From contig JALHSY010000055.1 in the NCBI GenBank assembly GCA_022865455.1, positions 3,965 through 67,964 on the forward strand: 64,000 nt of DNA, given 5' to 3'. This stretch comes from Candidatus Bathyarchaeota archaeon. GTDB lineage: Archaea; Thermoproteota; Bathyarchaeia; Bathyarchaeales; Bathycorpusculaceae. Shown in pieces: positions 9,130 through 53,691 of the stretch (within the stretch, counting starts at the first letter, position 1; each line of letters begins with the position of its first letter). The translations under genes were made by a program, and so were the position numbers. Below the pieces are notes generated by a model, which had not been told where the DNA came from, searched no databases, and saw only the letters and a list, made by a program, of their open reading frames with translations.

Positions 9130-12100
9130 TTAAGTTGCATCTATTTCGCCGGTAAAGAGCCTTGGTCTAAGATTCGGGTCTCTGATCATCTCCGCATATT
9201 TTTGATATATTTTTTCTGAAGTGGTTCGAGGCACTAGCTGAAGTGAGGTTTTGAAATGCTCTGGCGTCAAAACCATTCCCTCCGCCATTTCAACTACAGT
9301 TTCCCATAGTTTCTTTAAGTCGCTCATCGAATAATGCTCTGTTAGTCTTGCGATCTCTGTCAACAAGAGTTTGCTGGAACAACTCATTCCTCTAGCTAGT
9401 GTCTGCAAATATCTCAGCCTTGTTTCAAAGTCTGGAAGCGGGAAGTATGCAGTTTTTAGTCTTCTTGCGGCAGATTGAAAAATCTTGTACGGATCATTCT
9501 CTGCCGTTATGAAAACAATTCTGGCTTTTTCGTCTTTCATGATTCTATTGTATTCATCGTTAAGCACGCCGAGAATACCCTTTTGCTTTTCTTCCAGCAA
9601 AGAGTCCGCCTCGTCTATGAAGATGACTGCGGGCATTGCCTTCCAAGCGTTGTCGACAATCAAAGCAAATTCCTTTTCAGGCTTTTCAAGCTTGAGAATA
9701 TCTTTTGCATGAATTGTGACATAGCTCTTAATGATCTTCTTCCTCTTCAAATCCTCCAGGAGACGTGAAACTACGTAGCTTTTCCCTGCGCCAGCTATAC
9801 TGAAGAGATTCAGACCAGCATAACTGGCCAGATCACGTGGTTTTCTAATGCCAACAAAGTCTTGAATGATTTGAGCTAATTTTGCCCTAATTTTCACGTG
9901 ATTTCCAATATGTACGTTTACACCTTCGAGCAACGCTTTTAGATGAGAGGCCGCAAGTTCCACATCCCTTTCGTTGTTGAAGTGGTGAACACAGATTCTA
10001 ATACATGGAGGCTTACGCAAAGATCTTACAATGATATTTGACTTTCCCAACAAGGCTACTATCTTTTCATAAGTAGCATTTTCCTCGTTTCCTTGAATCT
10101 GAAGAATTAGCATTCCAGTCTTGGCCGCATCAGTCGGGTTTAATACTCTCCATTTTGTGTTCTTGATAGCGTCCTGAAATCTTTTAACAAGCTTTTCTTT
10201 CCATTTTGAGATTTCTGAGAAACGCAGTTTTGACACTGTCCCAATCGCTTCGCCTAAGCCGATAATTTTGGCAACATCTGCAGTGCCCAATTCATAAATT
10301 TGCCCATCACTCTTTTTGGGGGCATGTTTGGGGGAAACCGTGTAAGCCGTTGAGATTGGTAAATGGACTCCAAATGGGTTATCAGCTTCAAGGTTTTCTT
10401 CCTTAGAGTATAACAGACCTGTTCCTTCTGGTCCCAACAACCATTTATGCCCATCAAAAGCGTAAAAGTCGCACCCAAGATCTTTGACATTAACGCTAAT
10501 ATTGCCAACTGCGTGGGCTCCATCTACGAGAACAAACATCTTTCTACGCAAGCCTTTCGAAGCTTGCTGGCATTTCTTCACGATCTCTTTGATAGGCAAT
10601 TGCTTACAAGCACTGAACAGTATATGGCTTAGTATTATCAACCTTGTATGGGGGCCAATTCGGCTAATGAGTTTAGGAAGCCATTCCTTTCCTTCCAAAA
10701 TCTCTTTTTTGATTGAGGCAACGTCAAAGGTTTGGCCTAAGTGGTCTTCGTAGTACTCTTTGAGACGATAGACCACATTGTGTTCGAGATCTGTTGTCAG
10801 TACTTCGTCTCCTTGTTTGAGCACTCCTCTTAAAACCAAGTCAATACTTGAAGTCGTGTTATTGGTAAATATGATAGAGTCGCTACTCTCAGCTCCGATG
10901 AATTTCGCCACGAGACTTCTAGTTTGCTCGATTTTCTCCCCGAGTTCCTTTTCTAATTCTGTCCCTATTGGTCCTTCTTCGTTTCGACGCGCCAACCATC
11001 TTTCTTGTTCGTTCAAAACTGACTTATATGTAGAAGTCAGGCCCCCACTGTTCAAGAATATTCTGTAAGATTTCAGATTAAGGTGAGCGCGAGTCCCAAA
11101 TTTATCATAAGAAAACTCCTCTGACAGACGCACTCGCAGTCGATTTGCAATGCCCACATACTCCATAAGCTCTCCTATGTCTATCAAGTCTCTCTGCAAT
11201 TCCTTCTTCAAGCCCTTGCCTAATCGCAGGTTTTTTTCCTTGAGCTCCCCAAAAAGTGACTGCAAATCCTCAACAATCAAGTCAAAAGTTCTGGAAAAAC
11301 TCACCACTATCTCCTTGTAGTCTTTTGTGTCCAAGTCTATGATTCCATTCTCAACGAGCCAATCTTTCAAATCCTGTTCGTCATCAAACAGAAGCCGTAT
11401 GCAGGGAATAAGCTTGTGTTTTATCAGGAATTTGACGTCTTTCACTCGGTACATTAGCAGAAGTAGTGATCTCACCAACTCCTTGGATGAAGGAAATTGC
11501 TTCCCACAACTGGACAATATGTTGAAAAACGAACGGACTAGTTCGTCTCCCTCTTCAGTAATGGTCTGGAACTTTGATTTCAGTCCAGCAATTGCTCGTA
11601 TCTTGCTATAAAGAACTACTTCAAAAGTCGTGCATCTAGCGTAGAACTCGACTATCAAGCGTTGTATGTCTTCATTCGGCTCAAGCATGCCAAGCCTGTA
11701 CGGTTCAATCAGCTCTCCCACATATTCATCTTCATATTTTTTGCAGTCCATTAGAATATCAAAATATTTCTCTCCAATAGTTCTAGCTGTCTTTTGAACG
11801 TCAATCTCACTACTACTTTTCTTTGTGACCGCTGAAGATATGGCGCTTCTCAATTCAGCAAGTGCAAAGTCATACTTAGTCTTAAGGAGTGGGGGCAAGT
11901 GGTTTTCCAATTCGAGCAGAGAGTTGAGCAAGTACAGTGAATTTCCGAGAGTTGACAACTCATTTGCTAGTCTCTCTACAAGCTCAACGATATCGAAGAA
12001 TTCGTCTGGCGAAACTCCGTAATTCTTAACTTGTTTAAGGATAGATTCCGAAAAGGTGTCAGGATTGCAATCTTTTCTCAATCCTGGCTCGATTATATAT

Positions 12101-12618
12101 TCATAGAAGTCTAGGAGATCTGGTTCATTCCACTCGCTAATGAAACGTTCGGGATTTTCAACCTTGTAGTCAGATTCTCTCAGCCGTTTCAGGAATTTCT
12201 CTCTTTCGCCATTCTCTAGTTTCTGAAAGACAATTTGTCCTACGTATAAATATCCGATAACCTCGTCTGGCCATATCATTATTGGAAACAGAAGATTCGG
12301 AAATCCTCTCCCCTGGTGACACCTGTAGAAATACCCTTTCTTATGCGTTCTAGCCATGTGTGCGCCTTCAGTGTCTGAAAGCAAGCACTTGAGCTGAGCT
12401 TTTTCGTTCAAAGGGCAGTCAATCATGCTTTGGCAGACGTTTCCACCCAATTCTTCGGCTCTTCTCGCAAATACTCGTGTTTTTGGAAACTTTCCAGTTA
12501 TTGGTCTTGACTGAAGATCCTCAAAAACTACAGAAACTTTTCCCTTGAATAATCTCGCAAGTCTTTCTTGCAAGAACTCCAAAAAAGACCTGTCAAGAAT
12601 TGTTGTCAGATCAGTCAT
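9130..12618 (-). CDS. Multidomain protein: PocR-like sensor domain, helical region, class-V aminotransferase/cysteine desulfurase-like PLP domain, and C-terminal AAA+ ATPase
   Basis: Uninterrupted 1162-aa ORF. The N-terminus has YRCHQG..FPIMI..VIGYLYVGQI (PocR-like). The middle has IIFTNNTTSSIDLV, VDGAHAVG and FDGHKWLLGPEGTGLLY (PLP lysine). The C-terminus has Walker A SIAGAGKSY, Walker B VIFIDEADSL and AAA-type YFPLPDFETR. Confidence 0.85.
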   Translation of the reverse strand: MTDLTTILDRSFLEFLQERLARLFKGKVSVVFEDLQSRPITGKFPKTRVFARRAEELGGNVCQSMIDCPLNEKAQLKCLLSDTEGAHMARTHKKGYFYRCHQGRGFPNLLFPIMIWPDEVIGYLYVGQIVFQKLENGEREKFLKRLRESDYKVENPERFISEWNEPDLLDFYEYIIEPGLRKDCNPDTFSESILKQVKNYGVSPDEFFDIVELVERLANELSTLGNSLYLLNSLLELENHLPPLLKTKYDFALAELRSAISSAVTKKSSSEIDVQKTARTIGEKYFDILMDCKKYEDEYVGELIEPYRLGMLEPNEDIQRLIVEFYARCTTFEVVLYSKIRAIAGLKSKFQTITEEGDELVRSFFNILSSCGKQFPSSKELVRSLLLLMYRVKDVKFLIKHKLIPCIRLLFDDEQDLKDWLVENGIIDLDTKDYKEIVVSFSRTFDLIVEDLQSLFGELKEKNLRLGKGLKKELQRDLIDIGELMEYVGIANRLRVRLSEEFSYDKFGTRAHLNLKSYRIFLNSGGLTSTYKSVLNEQERWLARRNEEGPIGTELEKELGEKIEQTRSLVAKFIGAESSDSIIFTNNTTSSIDLVLRGVLKQGDEVLTTDLEHNVVYRLKEYYEDHLGQTFDVASIKKEILEGKEWLPKLISRIGPHTRLIILSHILFSACKQLPIKEIVKKCQQASKGLRRKMFVLVDGAHAVGNISVNVKDLGCDFYAFDGHKWLLGPEGTGLLYSKEENLEADNPFGVHLPISTAYTVSPKHAPKKSDGQIYELGTADVAKIIGLGEAIGTVSKLRFSEISKWKEKLVKRFQDAIKNTKWRVLNPTDAAKTGMLILQIQGNEENATYEKIVALLGKSNIIVRSLRKPPCIRICVHHFNNERDVELAASHLKALLEGVNVHIGNHVKIRAKLAQIIQDFVGIRKPRDLASYAGLNLFSIAGAGKSYVVSRLLEDLKRKKIIKSYVTIHAKDILKLEKPEKEFALIVDNAWKAMPAVIFIDEADSLLEEKQKGILGVLNDEYNRIMKDEKARIVFITAENDPYKIFQSAARRLKTAYFPLPDFETRLRYLQTLARGMSCSSKLLLTEIARLTEHYSMSDLKKLWETVVEMAEGMVLTPEHFKTSLQLVPRTTSEKIYQKYAEMIRDPNLRPRLFTGEIDAT

Positions 12619-12943: not shown

Positions 12944-14011
12944 ATGACAAGAAGTTACGTGGTTCCCGATCCGCCAGAATTGATTTCCCAGATCAGTGAA
13001 ATTGTTGCCAGAATTCAGCCGTTATGGGACGCAAGAGACTTCAGAGCCACTGAACCCTTGTTCAGGCAATACTATGAGACAATGAGAGCTTGCGAAGAGA
13101 CTCTGCCCGAAGGCAAGAGGCTCCACAAGGGCGCACCTTTGCATAACTGGGGCATTTCAATATTGTTGCAGGAAGAACCCACAAGGATTCAGGAAGCTGT
13201 CGAGAAAATCTTCCTCGCTTACATAGAAGATTTGTTAGACTTTGATACTATTGACCAGGTTCACTCATCCTCTGCTTACAAAACGCTGTACACCAGTCCA
13301 ATTGGCGTGGATGCTTTATCCTCTGCTCAGACCATAGTGGAAGAACTAAGAAACGCTGGAAGAATTCCAAAAAACCCTGAAGAAGTCTTCACTGAAAGCT
13401 TGCGCAGAGAAACTCAACTGGGACTTCGACAAACAAATACCAAGAAACTCAAGACAGTCTTTGTAGTACATGGCAGGAACTTGAAAGCCCGAGACTCCAT
13501 GTACTCTTTCTTAAGGTCACTCGATATGAACCCGATAAACTTGGCGGAAACCATGCTTCAAAGTGGACTAGTAACTCCATATATAGGTGAGGTGTTAGAT
13601 TACGCCTTTTCCCTTGCTCAAGCCGTCGTGGTTCTCATGACGCCTGATGATGTTGGTTGCTTGCGAGAACCATTTAGAAAAGCTGGTGATCCGATTCATG
13701 ACACAAAATTCACACCTCAAGCTCGACTAAATGTGATTTTTGAAGCAGGTATGGCGATGGAGGGAAAGTTCCGTAAGAGAACGATATTAGTTGAATTGGG
13801 TCAACTTCGGCAATTGACTGACTTGGGTGGCCTTTTCATGGTGCGACTAGATAATTCAATTGAAAAACGTCAAGACCTTATAGCGCGACTGAAGAACTGC
13901 GGGTGTACGGTTAATGACACAGGTGACGGTTGGCGCCGAGCAGGGGATTTCGAAACGACTATAGTCCATAAGGAGAATTTCCTACGTCGATTCATGCTTT
14001 CGCACCTTTAG
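12944..14011 (+). CDS. CAP12/PCTIR-type TIR-like domain protein with N-terminal helical domain
   Basis: The C-terminal half has VFVVHGRNLKARDSMYSFLRSLDMNPINL...AQAVVVLMTPDD...ARLNVIFEAGMAMEGKFRKRTILV...LTDLGG. This matches the pattern of the predicted nucleotide-binding TIR-like family (PF10137-type). The N-terminal ~170 aa are helical and of unknown function. Confidence 0.75.
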   Translation: MTRSYVVPDPPELISQISEIVARIQPLWDARDFRATEPLFRQYYETMRACEETLPEGKRLHKGAPLHNWGISILLQEEPTRIQEAVEKIFLAYIEDLLDFDTIDQVHSSSAYKTLYTSPIGVDALSSAQTIVEELRNAGRIPKNPEEVFTESLRRETQLGLRQTNTKKLKTVFVVHGRNLKARDSMYSFLRSLDMNPINLAETMLQSGLVTPYIGEVLDYAFSLAQAVVVLMTPDDVGCLREPFRKAGDPIHDTKFTPQARLNVIFEAGMAMEGKFRKRTILVELGQLRQLTDLGGLFMVRLDNSIEKRQDLIARLKNCGCTVNDTGDGWRRAGDFETTIVHKENFLRRFMLSHL

Positions 14012-14236
14012 TTTATGCCATCACTACTGCATTTAACAGGCTGCAAAACGCACTCGCAGAGGGAGAGACAACGATGGACGAAATGGTTCTGTAAAGTCTT
14101 CGGTGAAAATCCGTGACTTCTCTTCCTTGTAAAAATTCGGTGAAACAAGCCCTATGCAAGTTTTCGGTTGATTTATATAAAGAGAAAAATAATAATGATT
14201 CTTGACAATTCTGATTGTCGAAGGACTTGAGAGATA

Positions 14237-14893
14237 ATGAGCAAACCAAAAAGAAACGATAGAAAGGTCGAGGTTACTGGCATTTCCTCAAGCGACTCCA
14301 TTAAGAGATACAAGACACTTCTTGAAAACGAGTTTGGTGCTTTTGACGTTGAGGATAAGGGAGAATATGTCTTACTGCATAAGAGAATCAAACTTCCCGA
14401 CAGGAAATTCATCAATATCATCGTATACTCTACTGATAGAATATGCGTTTCTGGTTCGGCATCCATAGATACTGGCGAATTTGGACAAAAAGCAACGAGA
14501 ATCGTTGAACTAGCTCAACAAGCCAACACACCTATTGAGGATGTAAGACCAATCTCCGTTCAAAGTGCCAAAGACATTCTGGGTTTTGCTAAAAACCTCA
14601 ACTTAGACAAGGACTATGAACGAATGATAGCGATTATTCTGTCAGATACTTCCAATGAAATTGTTCTTAGGGAGAAAATGAAGGCTTTCCAAATTGGGGG
14701 TACTGCTCTTGATGACAGCATTCCTGAGAAAATAAGAAGATTAAAAGAAAAAGGTTGCCAGATTGTTGAAGAAGCTGCAATAAAAAACCTTAGAGAGACA
14801 CGAAATAGGATTGTACACTACGGAGAAATACCCCATAAAGGGCAAGCAGAAGAGTGTTTGAAAGTAGCAGATCATGTGCTTCAATCGGTGTAA
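14237..14893 (+). CDS. Two-domain protein: RNase HIII N-domain-like (TBP-like) plus C-terminal HEPN (R-x4-H) domain
   Basis: The C-terminus has LRETRNRIVHYG, which fits the RNxxxH(Y) HepT/DUF86-style HEPN motif. The N-terminus has KVEVTG...IIVYSTDRICVSG, which resembles the RNase HIII N-terminal domain pattern. The stop lies 3 nt before the next gene. Confidence 0.55.
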   Translation: MSKPKRNDRKVEVTGISSSDSIKRYKTLLENEFGAFDVEDKGEYVLLHKRIKLPDRKFINIIVYSTDRICVSGSASIDTGEFGQKATRIVELAQQANTPIEDVRPISVQSAKDILGFAKNLNLDKDYERMIAIILSDTSNEIVLREKMKAFQIGGTALDDSIPEKIRRLKEKGCQIVEEAAIKNLRETRNRIVHYGEIPHKGQAEECLKVADHVLQSV

Positions 14894-14896
14894 AAC

Positions 14897-15550
14897 ATGG
14901 TTCTTGAAGGATTGAATGAATACGTTGCCTACATTGGGTCTGATGAAGCAGGCAAAGGTGAGTGGCTTGGTCCTCTTGTCGTGACGGCGGTTGCGTTATC
15001 AAAGCAACAACGTTCATATCTTGTTACTCAAGGAGTAATGGATAGTAAAGAACTTAGGCTTGATGTTATTGCTGAACTTGCGAAAATAATACAGAAGTCA
15101 TGCCTGTCTTACCATGTCGTCACTATTTCCCCACTTTCATTCAACGGTTTGATGAAAGAGGTAAAAGGTGAGGGACGGAGTCTAAACGACATTTTGGCAT
15201 GGGGGCACTCACAAGCAATCGGCGACGTTTTTGAAGAATTGACTAGAAACGGAATATCTGGTAAGATCAAGCTTTCAATCGATATGTTTGATAGGATAAA
15301 AACGGAAGACAGATTGAAAAGAATCATTGATTTGAGAAAATTCGATTTGGATCACCGACCCAAAGCAGAAAGCGAAACCTCTGTAGCAGCAGCAAGCATA
15401 GTCGCTCGGGCTGTGAGGGAACTTTGGATTGATGAAAAATCGAAGGAACTCCGTCTAGATTTGCGAAGGCTCTCGGTTAATGAAGCAATATCGCATTCTG
15501 ATGCTAATTCCTTTGCGAAGCTGAGTTTCTTGAAGCGCAGAAGACCCTAA
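14897..15550 (+). CDS. RNase HIII-type ribonuclease H catalytic domain protein (no N-terminal domain)
   Basis: Contains GSDEAGKGEWLGPLVVTAV, GVMDSKEL, AWGHSQAI and KAESETSVAAASIVAR. These match RNase HII/HIII catalytic motifs with the HIII-like KAES..AAASI.AR tail. Confidence 0.7.
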   Translation: MVLEGLNEYVAYIGSDEAGKGEWLGPLVVTAVALSKQQRSYLVTQGVMDSKELRLDVIAELAKIIQKSCLSYHVVTISPLSFNGLMKEVKGEGRSLNDILAWGHSQAIGDVFEELTRNGISGKIKLSIDMFDRIKTEDRLKRIIDLRKFDLDHRPKAESETSVAAASIVARAVRELWIDEKSKELRLDLRRLSVNEAISHSDANSFAKLSFLKRRRP

Positions 15551-15891
15551 TTTTGTTTGCTCGCATTTTGAATCAGAGTTATCCACTTGTTTTGACCTCC
15601 AATTTTTATTCCACAAGCTTCCGCTGGAGTCTTACCGTCTAAGCCTTCATGTGGTCTTATGAAGTTATGAAACATTTGGTAGCCCTTTAGAATTGGTGTG
15701 TCTTCTTTCTTCAAACCCCTCATGACTTTCTCTCTATCTCTCACTTCTCCATTAAACCGTTCCATTTTGTTGTTGTTTCTGTCTCCCTGAATAGTTATGT
15801 GCCTTACATGTTCTGTCCTTGTATCCTTCCTGAGATTCCAAAACTCCTTCTTGTAAGCATCGTGATAAGCTGGCAAACCATCCGTTATCAA
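15547..15891 (-). pseudogene. Truncated IS6-like DDE transposase (C-terminal half only)
   Basis: The 114 aa ITDGLPAYHDA...NNNKMERFNGEVRDREKVMRGLK...FIRPHEGLDGKTPAEA align with residues ~180-300 of the intact transposase at 18638-19579. It lacks the Zn finger and the first catalytic Asp. Confidence 0.7.
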
Positions 15892-16157
15892 GGTCCCTTG
15901 AAATAGAACTCGGCTGTGACCTTCTCCAATCTGCTAAACTTCTCTTTCAATTCAACCGTCTTACGCTCAATATCCGTTAATAGAGCATCATATTCATTAT
16001 CGGTTGATGCAAATTCATTTAGAGCCTGAAGTCTTCCTCGTGAGACTTTAGCCCCTGATTGAAGTTTTTCTTCTAACACTTTTTCTCTCTGTTCAAGTAA
16101 CTCAAATTCCTTCTTCAAGAATCCATATCTGCTCTCATAACGCTGTCTGGTTGACAT
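15888..16157 (-). CDS. Hypothetical coiled-coil protein fused or abutting the transposase fragment
   Basis: 89-aa ORF whose TGA overlaps the TTG of the transposase fragment. It does not resemble a transposase N-terminus. Confidence 0.35.
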   Translation of the reverse strand: MSTRQRYESRYGFLKKEFELLEQREKVLEEKLQSGAKVSRGRLQALNEFASTDNEYDALLTDIERKTVELKEKFSRLEKVTAEFYFKGP

Positions 16158-16202
16158 GACAACCTGTATTATGGAATAGACATAAAAAGTCTAGCCATCA
16201 CC

Positions 16203-16223
16203 GATACTGTTAAGTTATTTGTG
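16203..16223 (+). repeat. 21-nt repeat GATACTGTTAAGTTATTTGTG (copy A)
   Basis: Identical to 37044-37064. It is the reverse complement, with 1 mismatch, of 22161-22181. Confidence 0.75.
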
Positions 16224-16285: not shown

Positions 16286-18004
16286 CTATTTTGGAGATAG
16301 TGACCATGTATTGACTGCTAAATCAGCAAGTTTCTTCTGCCTTTCATTTATCTCGATTGGACTCCACAGAGTTTGTTCATTTGTGAGTTCGCAAATAAGC
16401 TGAGTTATTGCTAGTGGGCTTTTCTTGTATACAAGTCGTTTGGTCTGGAACGGAGCATTTCCAAAATCAGCGTTAGTTGTTGCGTTTAGTAAAGTCATAT
16501 TTCCGATTCTTTTGGTGTATGCATCTGCCGTTTCAGAATCAATATGTGGCCAATTGTTTGATCGTTCATACGGTAGGATATGTTCTAAGTTGAGAAAATC
16601 CGTATCTCGTTCTGGAACTAATTCTGGTTGAACATCCTTTCTCACGCAACGTTCTATTGCACGTAGATAGTATCGAGCAAGATTATGTTGTGATACTCTC
16701 GCAGTTGTAAAGGCTGTTCTAAATTCTTCGTCAGAAGGAATTACAGTCACTAAACTGTCTAGTAGTTCCTTTGTAGTCTTGATTTTGCCCATAGAGACGC
16801 TTAGAGCTTGATCTCCGTATGCATCTTCCAATTGTCCCCCCCTCATGCCACCAGAAATCAAGAATCTAACAGTCCAGCATATGAAGGAACGAAATGAAGT
16901 CAACGCTTCTGATGGCTCAAAATGCTTCGCAACAGCGAGCATTAATGGACGTATTTGTTGCACTTTCAATTCCCTAAGATTTGCAATACTTTCGCCGATT
17001 TGAGCTGGATAGCTATTCCACTTTTCATGAGTTGGAGTGAGTATTGCAGCATAACTATTTGCATAATCGGCAAGCTTGTCCAGAAAGCTAATTGCTTGAC
17101 CTCTACCTTGTACTTCTTTCTGAATCTTCTCGAATATTTCTTTTTCACGTGTTGGACCATACAACGTAATCATCAAGTGCCTCAGGTAAGTCATTACTAT
17201 GTCCTCAATGCCCAAAGTTTCCAGTATAGCAATCATTCTAGACCATTTTTGCTGTGCTTCTTGTATACGGTCACCTGCTTCATGGAAAAGAAAATTCTTA
17301 ACCAAATCAGCTTGAGAAGTCTTAAGACCACGATCATTTAGCGTTTCAAACATCATGAAGGCATTCACTTCATCAGGAACGGTCAGGTGAATGATAGTGG
17401 CTTTGTTGTCTATGAATTCTAACCATTCATTCAGGATGTCTTTAATGTTCCTGAAATCAGTCTGATTCTTCACTAAGTCTTGAACTAGACTTTCTGCTTT
17501 GTTTGCTGCAAAGTCGATTCGCTTGTGTGATTCTTTCTTTGGCTCAACAGACTGTCGTTCTTTAGCATTTGGTAGAGCAATTATGCGATTCTTAAAGTAT
17601 TCATTATCATCTGTGTTCAACGCCAGCTTAGGCACAGTTTCTACTTGTTCTCGATCAATTTTATACAGGTACTCTGTGTCAATGGAAGCTTGCAATGTTT
17701 CCTGTTTGTTCAAGTAAAAATAGTCCCTGATTGCTGCTAGTAGTATTGTCGTAGTTGCCAATCTTTGTTGTCCGTCCACTACTTCTGGAACGTTTTTTGA
17801 GCCCTTTGAAATCACGATTGTGCCGAGAAAATAGATAGATTGCTTATTTCTTATTGCATTCTGGAAATCTCGGAATAGATCGCCAATATGCTTGTCTTCC
17901 CATGAATATTCACGTTGATTAGGGGGAACTTTCAAGCGACCAGCTTTTAGCAATGTTCCAATCCCTTTAAACTCAAAAACTGAACTAGTCGTTATTTTCT
18001 GCAT
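16286..18004 (-). CDS. GmrSD-like DUF262/DUF1524 protein (type IV restriction-like nuclease)
   Basis: The N-terminus has PNQREYSW and VVDGQQRL (DGQQR ParB-like NTPase motif). The C-terminus has LNLEHILP...NMTLL (His-Me/HNH-like DUF1524). Confidence 0.85.
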   Translation of the reverse strand: MQKITTSSVFEFKGIGTLLKAGRLKVPPNQREYSWEDKHIGDLFRDFQNAIRNKQSIYFLGTIVISKGSKNVPEVVDGQQRLATTTILLAAIRDYFYLNKQETLQASIDTEYLYKIDREQVETVPKLALNTDDNEYFKNRIIALPNAKERQSVEPKKESHKRIDFAANKAESLVQDLVKNQTDFRNIKDILNEWLEFIDNKATIIHLTVPDEVNAFMMFETLNDRGLKTSQADLVKNFLFHEAGDRIQEAQQKWSRMIAILETLGIEDIVMTYLRHLMITLYGPTREKEIFEKIQKEVQGRGQAISFLDKLADYANSYAAILTPTHEKWNSYPAQIGESIANLRELKVQQIRPLMLAVAKHFEPSEALTSFRSFICWTVRFLISGGMRGGQLEDAYGDQALSVSMGKIKTTKELLDSLVTVIPSDEEFRTAFTTARVSQHNLARYYLRAIERCVRKDVQPELVPERDTDFLNLEHILPYERSNNWPHIDSETADAYTKRIGNMTLLNATTNADFGNAPFQTKRLVYKKSPLAITQLICELTNEQTLWSPIEINERQKKLADLAVNTWSLSPK

Positions 18005-18487: not shown

Positions 18488-18641
18488 GTTTTCCACCCTT
18501 CGTTAAATATCCCTTCTCTGAGAGCCAACTCATTATTATTGTTCGCAGCGTGTCTGAACACGTTTCGCCTATCGTTCCAACTAACTCTTTGTTCAGGAGA
18601 TCAGCAACATTTTCAGGAAGTGCTACTAGGACTTTTCTCAT
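18474..18641 (-). CDS. Small RHH/CopG-like protein (55 aa)
   Basis: My own translation gives MRKVLVALPENVADLLNKELVGTIGETCSDTLRTIIMSWLSEKGYLTKGGKHGKE. Its ATG overlaps the transposase TGA (ATGA). Confidence 0.4.
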   Translation of the reverse strand: MRKVLVALPENVADLLNKELVGTIGETCSDTLRTIIMSWLSEKGYLTKGGKHGKE

Positions 18642-19579
18642 TTCACAATCGCCTCCATTTCTCTTTTCTCTACCTTCTCAGGACTTGTTGCTTTGGCTAG
18701 AAGTTGTGCTTCATATTTTGTTGCTTCGTCTATCAATCCTTTCCATGTGCAAGGTGCTTCTGTTCTAGCTGCTTGTGCTGGCGTTTTACCGTTTAGGCTT
18801 TGGTGAGGTCTAACATAGTTGTAATGAATTGTGAAACCTTCCAGAAGTGCTTTTGTAGACTCAAAGCTTTTGAGTCCTCTCATCACTCTTGTGCGGTCTT
18901 TGACTGTTCCATGCATTCTTTCAACGATATTGTTTGTCTCTCTAGCTCGTATTCCGACTCTCTGTACTAATTCAGGTCTTGTGTCTTTTCGCATAGTATA
19001 GAAGACCTTGTTGAAAGCGGTTTCATATACAAAGCTACCGTCTACGAATACGGCTCTAGGTCTAACCTTGCTCTGTTCATATCCTTGCTTGAATACTGCT
19101 ATTGTGTCTTCTAGGGTTCTTGTTCCTGAGACGTGAGACGCAACCAGAAACTTCGTATCTTCGTCTATCATTTCCCAGAACCACACATTCCGCCCTTCAC
19201 ATGATAGCATTGTTTCGTCTTCATGCCATAAACCCGAAAGTTGAGGCGTGAGAGTAACCACGAAATCCTTAACCAACTTTGAGTATTTCTTTATCCAATT
19301 CAGGATTGTTACTTGACTGAAGGTTTCTCCGAATATCTGCTCTAGGTTTCTCTGAGTCTTGCGTAGCGATAGACCGTCATAATATAGGTTTAATGCGGTG
19401 ATTATGAGGTTCTTATCTGCCTTCATTTTGGCGAATCGTGCGTTCTCGTAGAAGCGGTGTCTACAGTCTTTGCACTTGTAGACTTGCTTGCCTTTGACTT
19501 TGCCGTCTTTCACGACTTTTTCAGAGCCACAATATTTGCATGGCATACGTCTCACAGGTATACTATAAGATACCTTCAC
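18638..19579 (-). CDS. IS6-family-like DDE transposase with N-terminal zinc finger
   Basis: 313 aa with CKYCGSEKV...YKCKDCRHRF, the DDE residues (WHEDETM, VFVDGS, NNIVERMHGTVKDRTRVMRGLKSF) and C-terminal YVRPHQSLNGKTPAQAA. Confidence 0.85.
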   Translation of the reverse strand: MKVSYSIPVRRMPCKYCGSEKVVKDGKVKGKQVYKCKDCRHRFYENARFAKMKADKNLIITALNLYYDGLSLRKTQRNLEQIFGETFSQVTILNWIKKYSKLVKDFVVTLTPQLSGLWHEDETMLSCEGRNVWFWEMIDEDTKFLVASHVSGTRTLEDTIAVFKQGYEQSKVRPRAVFVDGSFVYETAFNKVFYTMRKDTRPELVQRVGIRARETNNIVERMHGTVKDRTRVMRGLKSFESTKALLEGFTIHYNYVRPHQSLNGKTPAQAARTEAPCTWKGLIDEATKYEAQLLAKATSPEKVEKREMEAIVK

Positions 19580-19712: not shown

Positions 19713-19868
19713 ATGACAAAAAACCACATAACCGTTCGTTTGCCCCCAGAATACATAGAATGGCTTGAGAAAAAAGTTGAAGCCCACGATTATGGTTCAG
19801 TCAGTCATGGCATAACCCAACTTATCCGTGACGAAATTAGACGAGAAGAAGGCAAGAAAAATGAATGA
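19713..19868 (+). CDS. Small RHH (CopG-like) protein (51 aa)
   Basis: My own translation gives MTKNHITVRLPPEYIEWLEKKVEAHDYGSVSHGITQLIRDEIRREEGKKNE. Its stop overlaps the ATG of the next gene (ATGAATGA). Confidence 0.5.
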   Translation: MTKNHITVRLPPEYIEWLEKKVEAHDYGSVSHGITQLIRDEIRREEGKKNE

Positions 19869-20445
19869 AAAAAGGCGCATTGAAGACGACCTTTCGATTA
19901 CTCAGAAGGTATCTATCCTGCTTATTGGAGCCAACAGTTTTCAACCAATAAGAGGCAAACTTTGGTTCCAAAAAGAACTGTTTCTGATTGCACGAAATAT
20001 CGGAGAACTAGCCGAAGAAGCAGATTTTGAAAGTGACTTTATCGGACCATACTCTGAAATAGCCGACGAAGAGCTAGACCAACTTAAAAGGGAAGGCATC
20101 GTTTCCAAAGAAAAAGTTGAGTTGACCCCTCTTGGTCGTGATGTAGCTAATCGACTTAGAGTACAAAGCCCGCCTGCGATACTTAAATTAGTTTCAGAAA
20201 TGAAACGTTTCCTTAACAATCTGACAAAAGAGGAATTGCTTGGCTTCATATATTATTCATATCCAGAAATGCGAGTGGACTCTGTTGAGTTTGCAGAAAT
20301 CGACAAAAACAGAGTACAGATAGCTATTAGTTTGTTTGGAAAGCGCAAAGTAAGTCTGGGCAAAGCCGCACTGATTGCTGGGATGAGCCAAGATGATTTT
20401 ATTAGTGAATTGAAAGCAACAGGCGTCAGAGTTTTCGCGGAGTAG
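19861..20445 (+). CDS. Putative antitoxin: Panacea (DUF4065)-like N-domain plus UPF0175-like C-terminal HTH
   Basis: Contains GKLWFQKELFLIA...DFIGPYSEIADEEL (Panacea-like pattern) and C-terminal VSLGKAALIAGMSQDDFISELKATGVRVF (UPF0175-like). The track ORF starts at a GTG at 19828. The ATG at 19861 is coupled to the upstream RHH. Confidence 0.55.
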   Translation: MNEKRRIEDDLSITQKVSILLIGANSFQPIRGKLWFQKELFLIARNIGELAEEADFESDFIGPYSEIADEELDQLKREGIVSKEKVELTPLGRDVANRLRVQSPPAILKLVSEMKRFLNNLTKEELLGFIYYSYPEMRVDSVEFAEIDKNRVQIAISLFGKRKVSLGKAALIAGMSQDDFISELKATGVRVFAE

Positions 20446-20452
20446 ATACTTT

Positions 20453-20953
20453 TTGAAACTGGTTTTGGATGCATCTGTCATTATTGCATTCTTTAGAGAG
20501 CTAGATGATGGACAATTCCTTTATGCTCTAACCAAAAAGGGTTTTGAAATCTATGTTACAGATGGAGTCATAGTTGAGGTTAAGAAGGAACCAGAACTCA
20601 GTAGACTAAGACAAGCAATACGCGAAGGATGGATTGGAAGTAAGTCTGTTGAGAAGCACGAATTTGACAGGTTAAAGAACGTATATCCAATGTTGGATTA
20701 TGCAGAGGTTGAAGTCTTGATATGTTGTTTACGCTTTAGGTCTTATGACGAAGAATATTGTTGTGTTCTCGACGAAGGCCCTGGAAGGAAAATAGCAGAT
20801 TCACTGAACTTGGCAAAAACGGGCACGTTGGGTTTGCTCAAAATCTTGGAAGATAACAAAATCATTGATACTGAGTGTACGGAAAAGCTTTTGAACAAAC
20901 TGGAACAATCAACATTTAGATTGAGGAAACACAATCAGGGCATTACCCAATGA
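20453..20953 (+). CDS. PIN-like (DUF3368-type) nuclease, putative toxin
   Basis: N-terminal LVLDASVIIAF with acidic residues spaced as in PIN domains. UPF0175/DUF3368 is a known gene pairing. Confidence 0.6.
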   Translation: MKLVLDASVIIAFFRELDDGQFLYALTKKGFEIYVTDGVIVEVKKEPELSRLRQAIREGWIGSKSVEKHEFDRLKNVYPMLDYAEVEVLICCLRFRSYDEEYCCVLDEGPGRKIADSLNLAKTGTLGLLKILEDNKIIDTECTEKLLNKLEQSTFRLRKHNQGITQ

Positions 20954-22160: not shown

Positions 22161-22181
22161 CACAAATGACTTAACAGTATC
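22161..22181 (-). repeat. 21-nt repeat, inverted copy C (CACAAATGACTTAACAGTATC on + strand)
   Basis: Reverse complement GATACTGTTAAGTCATTTGTG matches copies A and B at 20/21 positions. It lies between the TA-like operon and the cassette array. Confidence 0.75.
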
Positions 22182-22325
22182 GCCATCACCCGACTGTTAA
22201 CACGGAGACGAATCACCCATCAAGTTAACATAACCTCGTTTTGGCTTCTGTCACGTCTTAGGGTCATGTAGCAGTGCAAAAATGCCTAGTATTGCACGTT
22301 TCGCCCCGGGAAAGAAGAGGGAGGG

Positions 22326-38893: not shown

Positions 38894-41029
38894 CTATTTC
38901 TTAAGTCTACTCTTCACGAGTTCCAGTATCTTTGCCGACTTCTTCCCTGTTCCGACTCCTTTGATATACCGTAATTCTTCTTTGAATTTCGCTTCGCCAA
39001 GTCTCTCGTACATCTCTGCGAAAATATCCATTATAGAACCTTTATAGTTCAGAGGGGGCTTGCGAAAGATGGTTTCGCAACGATTTCTAATTTTCCTAGT
39101 AGTTTCTCTACCAATACCTCTGAGTCTAATAAGCGGAAGTTCCTCTTCGGTCACTCCAAATCGGATTCTATCTCGAAAGTCTCGGAACTCCTTAGGAACA
39201 GGTATGTTCTTCTTTTGTGCTAACTTTTCGTATAATAATAGGAGTTTCCCCATCTCACTTGCGACTTGGGGAAGTTGACTCGTATAGACCTTGTAGTTTT
39301 CTTCAATGTCGCTCAAGTCATTGTTCTCCATCCATCCGAAAAACATTGCATATGCTGAGTATTCTGGACTGTCAAGGTCAGATACTGGCACTCCGATTTT
39401 TTCATAGAAGCTGATTATTTCTTCCGACTTTTCCCGAGGAACCTTACTAAGGCATGCGCCCTCAAACAGAGAAGATATCATGTGAATGATATTGTGATCC
39501 ATTCTCAATTTCCTCTCCGTTTCCAAGATCCTGTTCAGTGTTATGAATGGTGTTAGTTCATAAAAGGAAAATGTTCGGAACAAGAAATCAATAGTGACTT
39601 CTCCTAAATCTGTAAGCTTGTTTCCAGGAGCACCTAATGGAACAATGAACCCAGCATCGTACAAATACTGGGCATGAGATTTTAGAATTGAAAAGAGATC
39701 AAATGGCACCAATTGGTTTTCTTCTTTCCTAGATTGGAAATTGTAGAAGGTATTCTCAAAGAATTTCACTATCTCTTTGTCTTTGGATCTTCCAGAGTAT
39801 ATCAACTCCAGAATGGTTTTCCTGAAATAATCATCTCGTCCAACATGAGAAATGGCTGTTTCTATCTTTCCATCAAGATACTTCTCCACATTGTCCCTCT
39901 TCTTCTTCTTTACGATGAAGGCATATCCTTCTTTCTCGAAGTCTGGTCTACCAGCACGACCTGCCATCTGAATATACATGTATATTGGGATGTCTGTTCT
40001 TTTGCTCGGAACGGAAGGGTCATAGAAAGATGTATCAGCAACTATCACACTTTTTGCTGGGAGATTTACTCCGTAAGCAAGTCCAGTTGTTGCGAATAAG
40101 TAGTAGATTTTTCTTTCAACGAACAATTCTTGAACAAGATTCTTCAGTCTTTGATCAAGACCTGAGTGATGAAATCCGACTCCCTTCAGCAAGCATCTGC
40201 GAAGCTCTTCCTCGAGACTTGTTAACTTGTCACGAGATAGGGCTTTGCCGAATGCAAGGTCAAGATCTCCTTCTTTGAAGACATTTTTTCCCAAGAGTGA
40301 GCACATTGTTTGAGCTCTGGATTTCGTGGACTCCTTTGTGGTGCAGAAGACCAGATATGGCCCCTTTGCCATCTCAAGAAGCCTTTTGCAGAGTTCCTTG
40401 TTCTGCACCGCTTGACCAGTGTTGCTTAAATCAATGATTGCATGATTGATCTTGACCTTTCTCGCCTCTTCTGGCACTACGACTACATTGGCTCTTAGCC
40501 ACTCCCCAATCTCACCTTTGTCCTCAAACGTTGCGGAAAGACAAATGACTCGGATGCCGAGTTCCTTGAGAATTGTGATGACCTTTTCCAGATTGAATCC
40601 TCTCATAGGATCGTACAAGATGTGAAATTCGTCAATAATAGCTAAACCAAATCCCTCAGCTCTATGTCGTGAGACCAGTGCTGTCTTGTAAAAAGATTCG
40701 AAAGTAGTGATAACTATATCAGAACCGTTCCAATCTGCTGGAGAAGATTTTGCTCCAGCGATCTTTGCTGGCAAAACTTCAAAATCCTTCTCTTTCTCAG
40801 AAATGAGCGAAGTCATGGGCACCAAATAGGCGACTCTTTCACCAGAATTTAGGGCCTGTAACATCGCGAGTTGAGCTACGCCAGTCTTTCCTGAAGCAGT
40901 AGGAGCGATAACAACAAAATTACCTTCAGATTCGAGAAGACCATCTTCTACTGCCCTTGTTTGAGTGATATTGAGTTCCTTCCAACCTTTCAACTCCAGA
41001 AGCTTAGCAATTGTTTCATTTACTGCCAT
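38894..41029 (-). CDS. Ski2/Hel308-like DEAD/DEAH superfamily-2 helicase
   Basis: Contains VIAPTASGKTGVA (motif I), IIDEFHIL (II), LSATFED (III), VGFHHSGL, QMAGRAGRP (VI), and C-terminal HhH-like RLRGIGRETTRKI and IKGVGTGKKSAKI. Confidence 0.85.
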   Translation of the reverse strand: MAVNETIAKLLELKGWKELNITQTRAVEDGLLESEGNFVVIAPTASGKTGVAQLAMLQALNSGERVAYLVPMTSLISEKEKDFEVLPAKIAGAKSSPADWNGSDIVITTFESFYKTALVSRHRAEGFGLAIIDEFHILYDPMRGFNLEKVITILKELGIRVICLSATFEDKGEIGEWLRANVVVVPEEARKVKINHAIIDLSNTGQAVQNKELCKRLLEMAKGPYLVFCTTKESTKSRAQTMCSLLGKNVFKEGDLDLAFGKALSRDKLTSLEEELRRCLLKGVGFHHSGLDQRLKNLVQELFVERKIYYLFATTGLAYGVNLPAKSVIVADTSFYDPSVPSKRTDIPIYMYIQMAGRAGRPDFEKEGYAFIVKKKKRDNVEKYLDGKIETAISHVGRDDYFRKTILELIYSGRSKDKEIVKFFENTFYNFQSRKEENQLVPFDLFSILKSHAQYLYDAGFIVPLGAPGNKLTDLGEVTIDFLFRTFSFYELTPFITLNRILETERKLRMDHNIIHMISSLFEGACLSKVPREKSEEIISFYEKIGVPVSDLDSPEYSAYAMFFGWMENNDLSDIEENYKVYTSQLPQVASEMGKLLLLYEKLAQKKNIPVPKEFRDFRDRIRFGVTEEELPLIRLRGIGRETTRKIRNRCETIFRKPPLNYKGSIMDIFAEMYERLGEAKFKEELRYIKGVGTGKKSAKILELVKSRLKK

Positions 41030-45784: not shown

Positions 45785-47557
45785 ATGCGAATTACTAAAC
45801 CTGAAATCGATGAAATCTACAAAAGAGTGCAATCGAAATATGGAGGAATTAAGGAAGACTATTTCGCCTTATTGTACTTAACCAAGGAATTCAGGTTAAA
45901 CCTCGAGGAAACAGCAAACAACCAAGTTGCGTTTGGTGGAACGGACTACGGAATAGACGCCTTTCACTTCGACGAATTGCGAAGGAATCTTTACCTTTAC
46001 CAGTTCAAATGGTCTGTTGACCCGATGTTGTTTAAGGACTCATTCCAGAGGTTAATCAAAGACGGCATGGAAAGAATTTTCGGAAATCCAAGACAGGATC
46101 CGAATCAGAATCAAGTCTTGATAAAACTGAAAACTTGTCTCGCAGAAAATCGGTCGATAATTGATAAAATACTCATTCATTTCGTGTTCAATGGCGACGT
46201 AGAAACTGCAGAAAGGAGCCGCGTTCTGGATAGATTGCGTGAAGACCTTTACGATAAGAAATTCCTCGTGGAGCAGTATTTTGAAGGACAAAAAGTGCAG
46301 TTGATAATTCAATACATTTCAAATGCTAGACAAGAACGTACCAACATAGTCCAGGTCTCGGCAGCAGCTCACAAGTACGAGTTTGAAATTGCTGGCAGGA
46401 TTGGCTTGGATTCTCCCGACAAGAAGCTGTATGTCTTTTTTATTCCTCTCCACAAGCTCCTTGATATGTATAACGACCTTGGTCCGATGTTCTTTTCAAA
46501 GAATATCAGGTCTGGCTTGCCTGAAGACAAGAATACTAACCGAGAGATAAGGCGGTCACTCAGAAGGATAGTGCTTGAAGGAGAAGCAGTTGATGACTTC
46601 ACATTCTACCATAACGGCATCGCGTTAACTGCAGAAAAAGTGGAAGAAAAACAGAATTCAAGTATTATTTCTTTGGTGGAACCAAGAATCTTGAACGGCG
46701 CACAGACTGTCACAAGTTTAAAAGAATTTTCTGAGAAGAACCGCGGGAATAATAGTTTCAATCAGAACATAGAACGCTTTCATGAAATCAAAGTATTAGC
46801 AAAAGTGGTTCATTCAACAAACGATGACTTCATCAGGAGTGTGACCATAAATAACAATAGGCAGAACCCTGTCATGCCATGGAATCTGAGGGCAAATGAC
46901 ATGGTACAATTGCAATTTGAGGACAAATTCCGTAATGAACTCAAAATCTACTACGAGAGACAAGAAAATGCATTTAGGAATCTAACAGACCTGGACAAAG
47001 AGCAAATTGGTATAGTCGATTCCAAAAGCATAGAGATACGAAAGTTAGCACAGACATTTCTTGCTATACAAGGACAAATCGAGAAATTCTCTTCAATCCC
47101 TGAAGTTTTCGAAAATCAGAATTATTATGAAGATGCGTTTAAGGAGAGATACCTTCGAGTAGATGCAAGAAAGCTAGTACTATTCTACAAAGTCCAATTC
47201 AAGTTGTCCAGCATAATTAACGAGTTCGAGGAAAAATGGGCAAAATACTGGTACCTCGAAAAGGCGAGGTATTTGTTGTGGTCACTACTTATTCAAGGCC
47301 TCTTGAACAATGACAGGTTTGGCACATATGTGAATGACTATGGAAATTCGCTTGTAATCGAAGGCGATTTTACTGCCCTTCTAAAAGACATTGCATTGAA
47401 GCAAATACGTCACATTATCAGCAAAGCACTTGAAGACAGGAGATATGCAAAGTATCTTGCTGACAACCGATATTCGTTCCTCAGGTCAAGGGCTACATAC
47501 AATCACTGCATGGAAGTGGCGCACAAACTGTACAAATGGGAAAAGCTCAATCCCTGA
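45785..47557 (+). CDS. AIPR-family abortive-infection protein
   Basis: The N-terminus has GGTDYGIDAFHFD...LYLYQFKWS (PD-(D/E)xK-like). The centre has FYHNGIALTAEKV...ILNGAQTV, the hallmark NGxQT of AIPR. Confidence 0.75.
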   Translation: MRITKPEIDEIYKRVQSKYGGIKEDYFALLYLTKEFRLNLEETANNQVAFGGTDYGIDAFHFDELRRNLYLYQFKWSVDPMLFKDSFQRLIKDGMERIFGNPRQDPNQNQVLIKLKTCLAENRSIIDKILIHFVFNGDVETAERSRVLDRLREDLYDKKFLVEQYFEGQKVQLIIQYISNARQERTNIVQVSAAAHKYEFEIAGRIGLDSPDKKLYVFFIPLHKLLDMYNDLGPMFFSKNIRSGLPEDKNTNREIRRSLRRIVLEGEAVDDFTFYHNGIALTAEKVEEKQNSSIISLVEPRILNGAQTVTSLKEFSEKNRGNNSFNQNIERFHEIKVLAKVVHSTNDDFIRSVTINNNRQNPVMPWNLRANDMVQLQFEDKFRNELKIYYERQENAFRNLTDLDKEQIGIVDSKSIEIRKLAQTFLAIQGQIEKFSSIPEVFENQNYYEDAFKERYLRVDARKLVLFYKVQFKLSSIINEFEEKWAKYWYLEKARYLLWSLLIQGLLNNDRFGTYVNDYGNSLVIEGDFTALLKDIALKQIRHIISKALEDRRYAKYLADNRYSFLRSRATYNHCMEVAHKLYKWEKLNP

Positions 47558-53688: not shown

Positions 53689-53691
53689 TCA

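Follow-up and report, generated by a model that had tools for sequence, protein, structure and literature searches.

The described systems closest to the locus reported here are the RnlA and LsoA toxins of the bacterial anti-phage toxin-antitoxin (TA) systems rnlAB and lsoAB. RnlA is a HEPN ribonuclease (RNase) with two TBP-like domains, which most resemble the N-domain of RNase H3; substrate binding by RnlA depends on TBP1, and the active form is a canonical HEPN dimer (PMC8266594). Escherichia coli RNase HI binds to RnlA at a TBP-like domain, the NRD; RnlA is not activated without RNase HI, which also stimulates RNA cleavage by RnlA, and RnlB acts on RnlA together with RNase HI via a TBP-like domain (PMC5308261). 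Anantharaman et al. (2013) described HEPN domains of the RNase LS family that are joined either to RNase H or to a TBP-like domain "similar to that in RNase HIII", and predicted that RNA in RNA/DNA duplexes is the target (PMC3710099). The N-domain of RNase H3 itself binds hybrids specifically and enhances substrate binding, and canonical RNase HIII requires it for binding and for in vivo function (PMC4132731). We describe here an archaeal two-gene cassette, at positions 14237-15550 of the + strand of a 64-kb stretch of Bathyarchaeia DNA (hereafter the window, meaning the whole stretch analysed), in which a TBP-like/HEPN protein (gene 1) is encoded directly ahead of an RNase HIII-type catalytic core (gene 2).

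Both open reading frames (ORFs) lie exactly where a first-pass annotation, made from the sequence alone, had placed them. Gene 1 ends in a TAA stop codon whose last base is 14893 and gene 2 starts with the ATG at 14897, leaving a gap of 3 nt (AAC). All of the peptides quoted in that annotation are present: KVEVTG, IIVYSTDRICVSG and LRETRNRIVHYG in gene 1, and GSDEAGKGEWLGPLVV, DSKEL and KAES..AAASIVAR in gene 2.

The identification of gene 1 as a HEPN protein, already proposed at the first pass, is solid. Its 51 homologues are all of ~218-225 amino acids (aa) and carry no Pfam annotation. An AlphaFold2 (AF2) model built from the family alignment (predicted local distance difference test, pLDDT, 89.6; predicted TM-score, pTM, 0.72) has a beta-alpha-beta3-alpha N-domain at residues 7-97 and a C-domain at residues 100-216 in which DSSP finds helices only. 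With the whole protein as query against the PDB, the top Foldseek matches were the E. coli RnlA structures 7aex (NRD-HEPN), 4i8o and 6y2p and the LsoA structure 5hy3, with alignments that cover both domains at probabilities of 0.94-0.97; the TM-scores of these matches are low because the domain orientation differs. The C-domain matches 2hsb, the AF_0298 HEPN protein (TMt 0.70; root-mean-square deviation, rmsd, 2.8), and also the HEPN toxins 8xdj, 8yuf and 7ae9, of which 8xdj and 7ae9 are HEPN/MNT toxins; in the same search the N-domain matched TBP and further domains of TBP-like fold. The R-x4-6-H motif of HEPN RNases is present at the start of the last core helix, and in alignment A1 (33 gene-1 homologues, reaching down to 50% identity) R186, R189, N190 and H194 are invariant, as are D137, E141 and E146 on an earlier helix. 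The most distant matches of the gene-1 profile carry PF05168 HEPN (3e-10 to 3e-11) or DUF4145 above threshold, which ties the gene 1 C-domain to HEPN by transitive homology. The sub-threshold Pfam matches of gene 1 as a single sequence all belong to HEPN-clan families (RiboL-PSP, DUF4145, Apea and Swt1); such matches recur among the A1 homologues (DUF4145 in 29/33, RiboL-PSP in 17/33, Swt1 in 16/33), where six HEPN-clan families are represented. The "HepT/DUF86 flavour" first assigned to the domain is not specific.

The TBP-like fold of the gene 1 N-domain is likewise solid. A model of residues 1-98 alone reached pLDDT 94.6, and the Foldseek matches of this isolated domain were to the PGM C-domain, the spermine synthase N-domain, KA1 and TBP, all of them TBP-like-fold domains; the alignment to the RnlA TBP domain has rmsd 3.2 over 72 columns (probability 0.96). 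The narrower proposal, that this is an RNase HIII-like N-domain, stood as regards the fold, and it is plausible, if weakly supported, that the domain is specifically related to the N-domain of RNase HIII. In its favour, hhalign of the gene-1 N-domain profile (71 sequences) against the N-domains of 13 full-length archaeal RNase HIII proteins gave a collinear alignment over 53 columns (P=1.7e-4, with a reversed control at P=0.04 over 11 columns); an earlier hhalign with a shallow profile was weak (E=0.015). Against it, no RNase H3 N-domain appeared within the top 50 Foldseek matches of the isolated domain. In two predicted proteins the gene-1 N-domain seemed to be fused to another domain (an F420 oxidoreductase in P0240, a CobN fragment in P0199); both were set aside as likely gene-calling artefacts.

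Gene 2, judged by its sequence, is an intact RNase HIII catalytic core lacking the N-domain. It matches Pfam RNase_HII PF01351 at 3.1e-23; its best NCBIfam model is rnhC TIGR00716, which scores 82.1 bits (cut-off 161.2) and aligns through its catalytic part only (positions 82-249 of 284), and the archaeal RNase HII model TIGR00729 gave 62.8 bits (cut-off 123.3). The best PDB match was Thermovibrio RNase H3 4py5 (7e-17, chain residues 74-238), the match to archaeal RNase HII 1eke being weaker (1.8e-10). Residues D16, E17, G19-K20-G21, E22, D129 and E158 are invariant in alignment A3 (gene 2 and 17 relatives). In the 4py5 alignment they fall on Ta-RNase H3 D78, E79, G81-K82-G83, E84, D180 and E206, which constitute the catalytic tetrad and the 2'-OH-contacting motif (PMC4132731). 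A Glu as the fourth carboxylate and GKG rather than GRG mark gene 2 as an RNase HIII-type core and not an RNase HII, in agreement with the first-pass assignment; the equivalog score, GRG motif and D-E-D-D tetrad of archaeal RNase HII (rnhB) are all absent from it. Gene 2 begins only 15 residues ahead of its first catalytic Asp, D16, and relative to its longer relatives the entire N-domain is missing: those of 282-313 aa, at 48-55% identity, have an extra ~80-aa N-terminal domain, flagged as PF11858/DUF3378 in two of them (P0158 and P0161). The invariance of R-x4-H in gene 1 and of D-E-D-E in gene 2 argues that catalysis is under selection in both genes.

The pairing seen in the window is general. 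We assembled ~45 loci from context look-ups and a metagenome scan; a gene-2 homologue directly follows the gene-1 homologue in 41 of the 41 that extend far enough downstream, at gene-1 identities from 96% down to 39%. The two genes are a few nucleotides apart (0-25 nt) or overlap by 4 nt. They diverge in parallel (gene 1/gene 2 identities of 96/96, 82/90, 75/77, 51/59 and 39/50%), gene 2 being somewhat more conserved, and the linked pair was found in at least 15 different flanking contexts and in several archaeal lineages. The family is small: an exhaustive HMM search of 1.84 billion cluster representatives with the gene-1 profile yielded 76 proteins at E<=1e-3, nearly all of the two-domain form and 216-226 aa long. 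It was seen in archaeal metagenome-assembled genomes (MAGs) and metagenomes only, with carrier labels of Bathyarchaeia, a Desulfurococcaceae-labelled MAG, Njordarchaeota and Nitrososphaerales. A scan of 185,579 GTDB species genomes with degenerate family motif patterns returned one locus, in the same Bathyarchaeia MAG already found; these patterns are narrow, and the scan supports rarity only loosely. In one Nitrososphaerales MAG (L049, 1243-1797) the gene-1 homologue has an in-frame stop and the RNase HIII core downstream is intact, which may reflect a pseudogene or an assembly error.

The cassette is also mobile. In whole-locus blastn comparisons, the homology of five loci (L017 at 94% nucleotide identity, L019 at 92%, L018, L020 and L022) to the window is confined to positions 14142-15750; this shared block consists of the two genes, ~75-95 bp upstream and at most ~200 bp downstream, and every flank is unrelated. 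Homology to otherwise unrelated loci begins at window 14142-14162, within an upstream region that travels with the genes. This region contains the repeat TTCGGT(G/T)(A/G)A at 14099, 14136 and 14163; all three matches to the repeat in the 64 kb sit within 73 bp just 5' of gene 1, and two TCGGTTGAT copies recur 5' of the cassette in L017, L018, L022 and L024. A TATA-like box, TTTATATAAA, follows at 14172-14181, and between it and the ATG lies a perfect palindrome, GACAAT-TCTG-ATTGTC (14205-14220), kept only in L017-L019. The repeats and the palindrome may be regulatory sites. The palindrome (GACAATTCTGATTGTC) was considered as a TA operator and dropped, being conserved in the closest relatives only.

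At the 3' side, the cassette abuts an insertion sequence (IS) remnant, inside which homology with the close loci fades (15680-15888). A related full transposase lies at 18638-19579 (-), another is found 5' of the cassette in L025 (3434-4321), and L011 has an integrase directly 5' of the cassette. The remnant is likely a trace of cassette movement, outside the function of the module. One contig (L041) matches window 14585-16213 at 99.5% identity, and a segment of it that overlaps the end of this match (bases 1600-1664) resembles window 22172-22236, which points to an IS-end repeat and to strain-level rearrangement immediately 3' of the cassette. The TIR gene immediately upstream (12944-14011) was considered as a third component and rejected: homology from copy to copy starts downstream of its stop codon, and the gene is absent from the other loci. 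The cassette behaves, then, as a small mobile conflict module (TA or defence) and not as a fixed housekeeping operon.

RNase HIII is considered rare in archaea. We examined four contexts of gene 2 relatives that are full-length, that is, that bear the N-domain; two are partnered and two are not. In the partnered ones, L015 and L047, a gene-1 homologue (39-41% identity; 39% in L015, hhalign 2e-57 in L047) lies immediately 5' of a full-length RNase HIII of 287-288 aa. The TBP-HEPN partner therefore appears to be older than the loss of the N-domain by the RNase subunit, and the earlier proposal of a simple split of RNase HIII, with its targeting domain re-attached to an RNase toxin domain, does not accommodate these loci. 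The most economical history has a housekeeping-type archaeal RNase HIII recruited beside a TBP-HEPN protein, with loss of the enzyme's own N-domain as a later step. The occurrence of partnered RNase HIII in two forms, one with the N-domain and one lacking it, fits redundancy of the two TBP-like domains, and therefore a shared complex. In a neighbour-joining tree of the catalytic domains with midpoint root, neither the long nor the short forms are monophyletic. The two unpartnered full-length relatives lie by Mre11/Rad50/Cdc6 (L014) and by metabolic genes (L046). In the former (L014, 507-4864) the 287-aa archaeal RNase HIII comes directly after the Mre11/Rad50-like genes and near Cdc6, which hints that unpartnered RNase HIII has a housekeeping role in replication or repair in some archaea.

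Comparison with RnlA/LsoA reveals several likenesses: TBP-like domain(s) N-terminal to a HEPN RNase with R-x4-6-H, a toxin gene that stands first in the operon as gene 1 does here, mobile and defence-associated systems, and a link to RNase H, since RNase HI binds the NRD and many members of the family are fused to an RNase H domain (PMC5308261, PMC3710099). There are also clear differences. Gene 1 lacks an RnlA Pfam match, its structural alignments to RnlA/LsoA have 8-10% identity, and it has one TBP-like domain where RnlA has two. The cassette has no RnlB- or Dmd-type antitoxin gene, the downstream gene being always of RNase HIII type; its partner is thus an operon-encoded type 2 (HIII) core, rather than a type 1 RNase HI supplied by the host or a fused RNase H of caulimovirus-like type. 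Finally, RnlA/LsoA are bacterial, whereas the cassette family is archaeal.

With canonical RNase HIII (rnhC; 2d0a, 3asm, 4py5), gene 2 shares the catalytic fold, the D-E-D-E tetrad with Glu in fourth place and the GKG-E motif, and its close relatives (282-294 aa, 50-55% identity) are full-length archaeal RNase HIII proteins with the N-domain; unlike that enzyme, gene 2 has no N-terminal TBP-like domain, is always co-encoded with the HEPN protein, and is mobile rather than a fixed housekeeping gene. A third comparison is with the "two-headed" combinations of HEPN with a second RNase (HEPN-RNase H fusions, HEPN-NamA operons and HEPN-RNase III fusions), in which the second RNase likewise recognises a duplex or hybrid and which occur in defence contexts near restriction-modification (R-M) genes; the partners in the 2013 survey were of the RNase H fold (type 1 or NamA) or RNase III, and in bacteria (PMC3710099). 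An operonic RNase HIII core as the partner of a HEPN protein, and this archaeal family, were found neither in that survey nor in PADLOC or the searchable literature. The first-pass statement that it knew of no described system of this composition holds in part: the TBP-like + HEPN architecture of gene 1 is known from bacterial RnlA/LsoA, as is a partnership of HEPN with RNase H (PMC3710099, PMC8266594), and what appears to be new, not having been found in PADLOC or the searchable literature, is the archaeal family itself and the fact that an RNase HIII catalytic core is its conserved partner within the operon.

Table 1. Features of the cassette in window coordinates, and genes that neighbour it in the window and at related loci
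Feature	Position	Strand	Description
Upstream region travelling with the cassette	14099..14236	+	Three TTCGGT(G/T)(A/G)A repeats, TATA-like box, palindrome
Gene 1	14237..14893	+	218-aa ORF; TBP-like + HEPN; RnlA/LsoA-like architecture
Gene 1 N-domain	14237..14530	+	aa 1-98; beta-alpha-beta3-alpha, TBP-like fold; putative nucleic-acid or RNA/DNA-hybrid binding module
Gene 1 C-domain	14534..14890	+	aa 100-218; all-helical HEPN domain
R-x4-H catalytic motif	14801..14818	+	R189-N-R-I-V-H194 in the HEPN domain of gene 1
Gene 2	14897..15550	+	217 aa; RNase HIII-type catalytic core without N-terminal TBP-like domain
Gene 2 active-site segment	14942..14962	+	D16-E17-A-G19-K20-G21-E22; remaining two carboxylates D129 and E158
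IS transposase remnant	15547..16157	-	ORFs 15547-15891 and 15888-16157; abuts cassette 3' end, overlaps gene 2 stop codon
Window neighbours			CAP12-type TIR, GmrSD, DISARM-like helicase/methyltransferase/SNF2 trio, AIPR, TA pairs
L017 neighbours			Type I-like methyltransferase and S subunit
L019 neighbours			GmrSD, methyltransferase and CfrBI endonuclease
L032 neighbours			Eco57I/MmeI type IIG enzyme
L023 and L013 neighbours			Large methyltransferases
L031 neighbours			TIR_2
L015 neighbours			DarT and Eco57I methyltransferase
L047 neighbours			SNF2/NOV_C protein
L011 neighbours			Integrase and MmeI methyltransferase

By a qualitative count, at least 10 of ~19 contexts are of defence type (Table 1). 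The window is one of these, and the earlier placement of the pair in a defence island next to a TIR-like gene is borne out by its gene content. The upstream TIR gene (12944-14011, +) is of the CAP12/Pycsar type (PF10137, 2.7e-22; PADLOC PDC-S35, 2e-22) with an N-terminal extension of ~170 aa. At 16286-18004 (-) there is a full-length GmrSD-type (DUF262/DUF1524) modification-dependent endonuclease (PADLOC HEC-06, 2.6e-179); the GmrSD beside the cassette in L019 is unrelated to it. A DISARM-like trio occupies 48433-60589 (-), comprising an SNF2 helicase (57644-60589), a 1329-aa Eco57I/MmeI-type N6 methyltransferase (53692-57681) and a 1751-aa DEAD helicase fused to MZB/DUF1998 (48433-53688). An AIPR abortive-infection protein (45785-47557, +; PF10592, 3e-27) and a separate DEAD/ResIII helicase (38894-41029, -) are further signs of one long defence island. 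On the other side of the cassette, 9130-12618 (-) encodes an unusual 1162-aa protein in which a PocR sensory domain, a domain like class-V aminotransferases/cysteine desulfurases (PADLOC SspA/DndA-like, ~1e-23) and an AAA ATPase are fused, and which could be a DNA-phosphorothioation-related or otherwise novel defence component. A 205-aa protein with a C-terminal UPF0175 antitoxin-like domain, followed by a DUF3368 (PIN-like) protein (19828-20953, +), is probably a TA pair.

We favour the reading, to which we assign a probability of about 0.55, that the cassette is a small mobile two-gene conflict module of archaea, serving as defence or toxin, and that it acts as a heteromeric dual RNase targeting RNA linked to RNA/DNA hybrids. 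The mechanism that we propose is inferred from what has been published on RnlA and RNase H3 together with the anatomy of the cassette. The two proteins would assemble into a complex, probably on a HEPN dimer, and the TBP-like domain of gene 1 would supply the grip on hybrid or nucleic acid for both nucleases and so hold the complex to nucleic acid that contains a hybrid. Hybrid RNA would be cut by the RNase HIII core, and the adjoining single-stranded RNA by the HEPN site or dimer; the outcome would be destruction of invader transcripts and primers or, if host RNA is attacked, dormancy or abortive infection. A narrower version is more tentative, and we would wager somewhat against it: that this is an archaeal immune module in which a mobile HEPN RNase captured an RNase HIII core and gives it a hybrid-binding domain in trans, the dual nuclease destroying the hybrid RNA of viruses and plasmids (replication primers, R-loops) along with the attached transcript.

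Several observations weigh against the conflict-module reading. The cassette contains no recognisable antitoxin or sensor that would restrain the putative HEPN RNase. Neither gene has a match in PADLOC, the matches of the cassette proteins to PHROGs are marginal only, and no cassette relatives were found among IMG/VR viral contigs or PLSDB plasmids, so that there is no evidence of a viral or plasmid-borne cassette. Homologue lengths reveal no natural gene 1-gene 2 fusion. For gene 1, no curated HEPN-clan Pfam model scores above threshold (RiboL-PSP, 16.2 bits against a cut-off of 28.4; DUF4145, 15.4 against 23.1), and the RnlA Pfam models have no match at E<=5 in any of the 33 A1 members. About four contexts have plain housekeeping flanks (L001, with purine genes; L005, with TiaS/AlaRS; L007; and L010). 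The enrichment in defence islands was judged by eye over the ~19 contexts, with no background statistic, and the taxonomic labels of the MAGs are uncertain where contigs are small.

The housekeeping flanks raise the question of whether the pair is simply a heteromeric RNase HIII, with gene 1 as an accessory substrate-binding subunit that contributes its TBP-like domain in trans when primers or R-loops are removed, and with the HEPN domain as a dimerisation scaffold or flap RNase. Eukaryotic RNase H2, with its catalytic A subunit and separately encoded, non-catalytic B and C accessory subunits, offers a parallel; there too a type 2 RNase H catalytic subunit relies on separately encoded partners, although those accessory subunits lack HEPN and TBP-like domains and the enzyme is housekeeping rather than a mobile cassette. 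Besides the flanks, this explanation can draw on the perfect RNase HIII active site of gene 2, on the unpartnered full-length relatives beside Mre11/Rad50/Cdc6 or metabolic genes, and on the dependence of canonical RNase HIII on its N-domain for binding and in vivo function (PMC4132731). It does not sit well with near-identical cassettes in unrelated flanks, with the frequent R-M, TIR, GmrSD, DarT, integrase and IS neighbours, or with a family so tiny and patchy. Nor would a scaffold need the HEPN catalytic motif, which is invariant, and the partner also accompanies RNase HIII that already has an N-domain. We regard this explanation as unlikely.

An explanation that we hold to be about as improbable keeps the conflict setting and makes the pair a classical TA system in rnlA-rnlB order, in which the HEPN protein is the toxin and the RNase HIII core is mainly an antitoxin or gatekeeper that binds the TBP-like or HEPN domain, its own nuclease activity being secondary. 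The toxin-first order is that of rnlAB, RnlB does act on RnlA with RNase HI via a TBP-like domain (PMC5308261), and a small mobile two-gene cassette with an operator-like palindrome between TATA box and start codon in the closest relatives has the look of such a system. The palindrome, however, is not conserved across the family, and gene 2 is more conserved than gene 1, with its four carboxylates and GKG-E substrate-contact motif invariant, which argues for selection on catalysis and not on binding alone. In L049, moreover, it is gene 1 that is disrupted and gene 2 that is intact, the reverse of what addiction would predict, though this may be an assembly error. That the two genes are adjacent without being functionally coupled we consider scarcely credible: it has no positive evidence in its favour and is effectively refuted by co-occurrence in 41/41 loci with 0-25 nt spacing, at 39-96% identity, in at least 15 flanking contexts and in several archaeal lineages.

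The dependence of RnlA on housekeeping RNase HI in E. coli has never been well explained. The cassette hard-wires an RnlA-like TBP-HEPN protein to an RNase H partner, which in some branches has shed its own hybrid-binding domain, and it makes a cleaner system in which to ask why RNase H is recruited by HEPN toxins. With a small family, short proteins and obvious active sites, these hypotheses are cheap to test. If the immune-module interpretation is true, the cassette would be the archaeal equivalent, encoded within one operon, of the partnership between RnlA and RNase HI and would represent the first defence role for a type 2 RNase H, a housekeeping enzyme co-opted into a mobile conflict module; it would also give archaea, in which little of the immune repertoire has been charted, one more candidate defence system.

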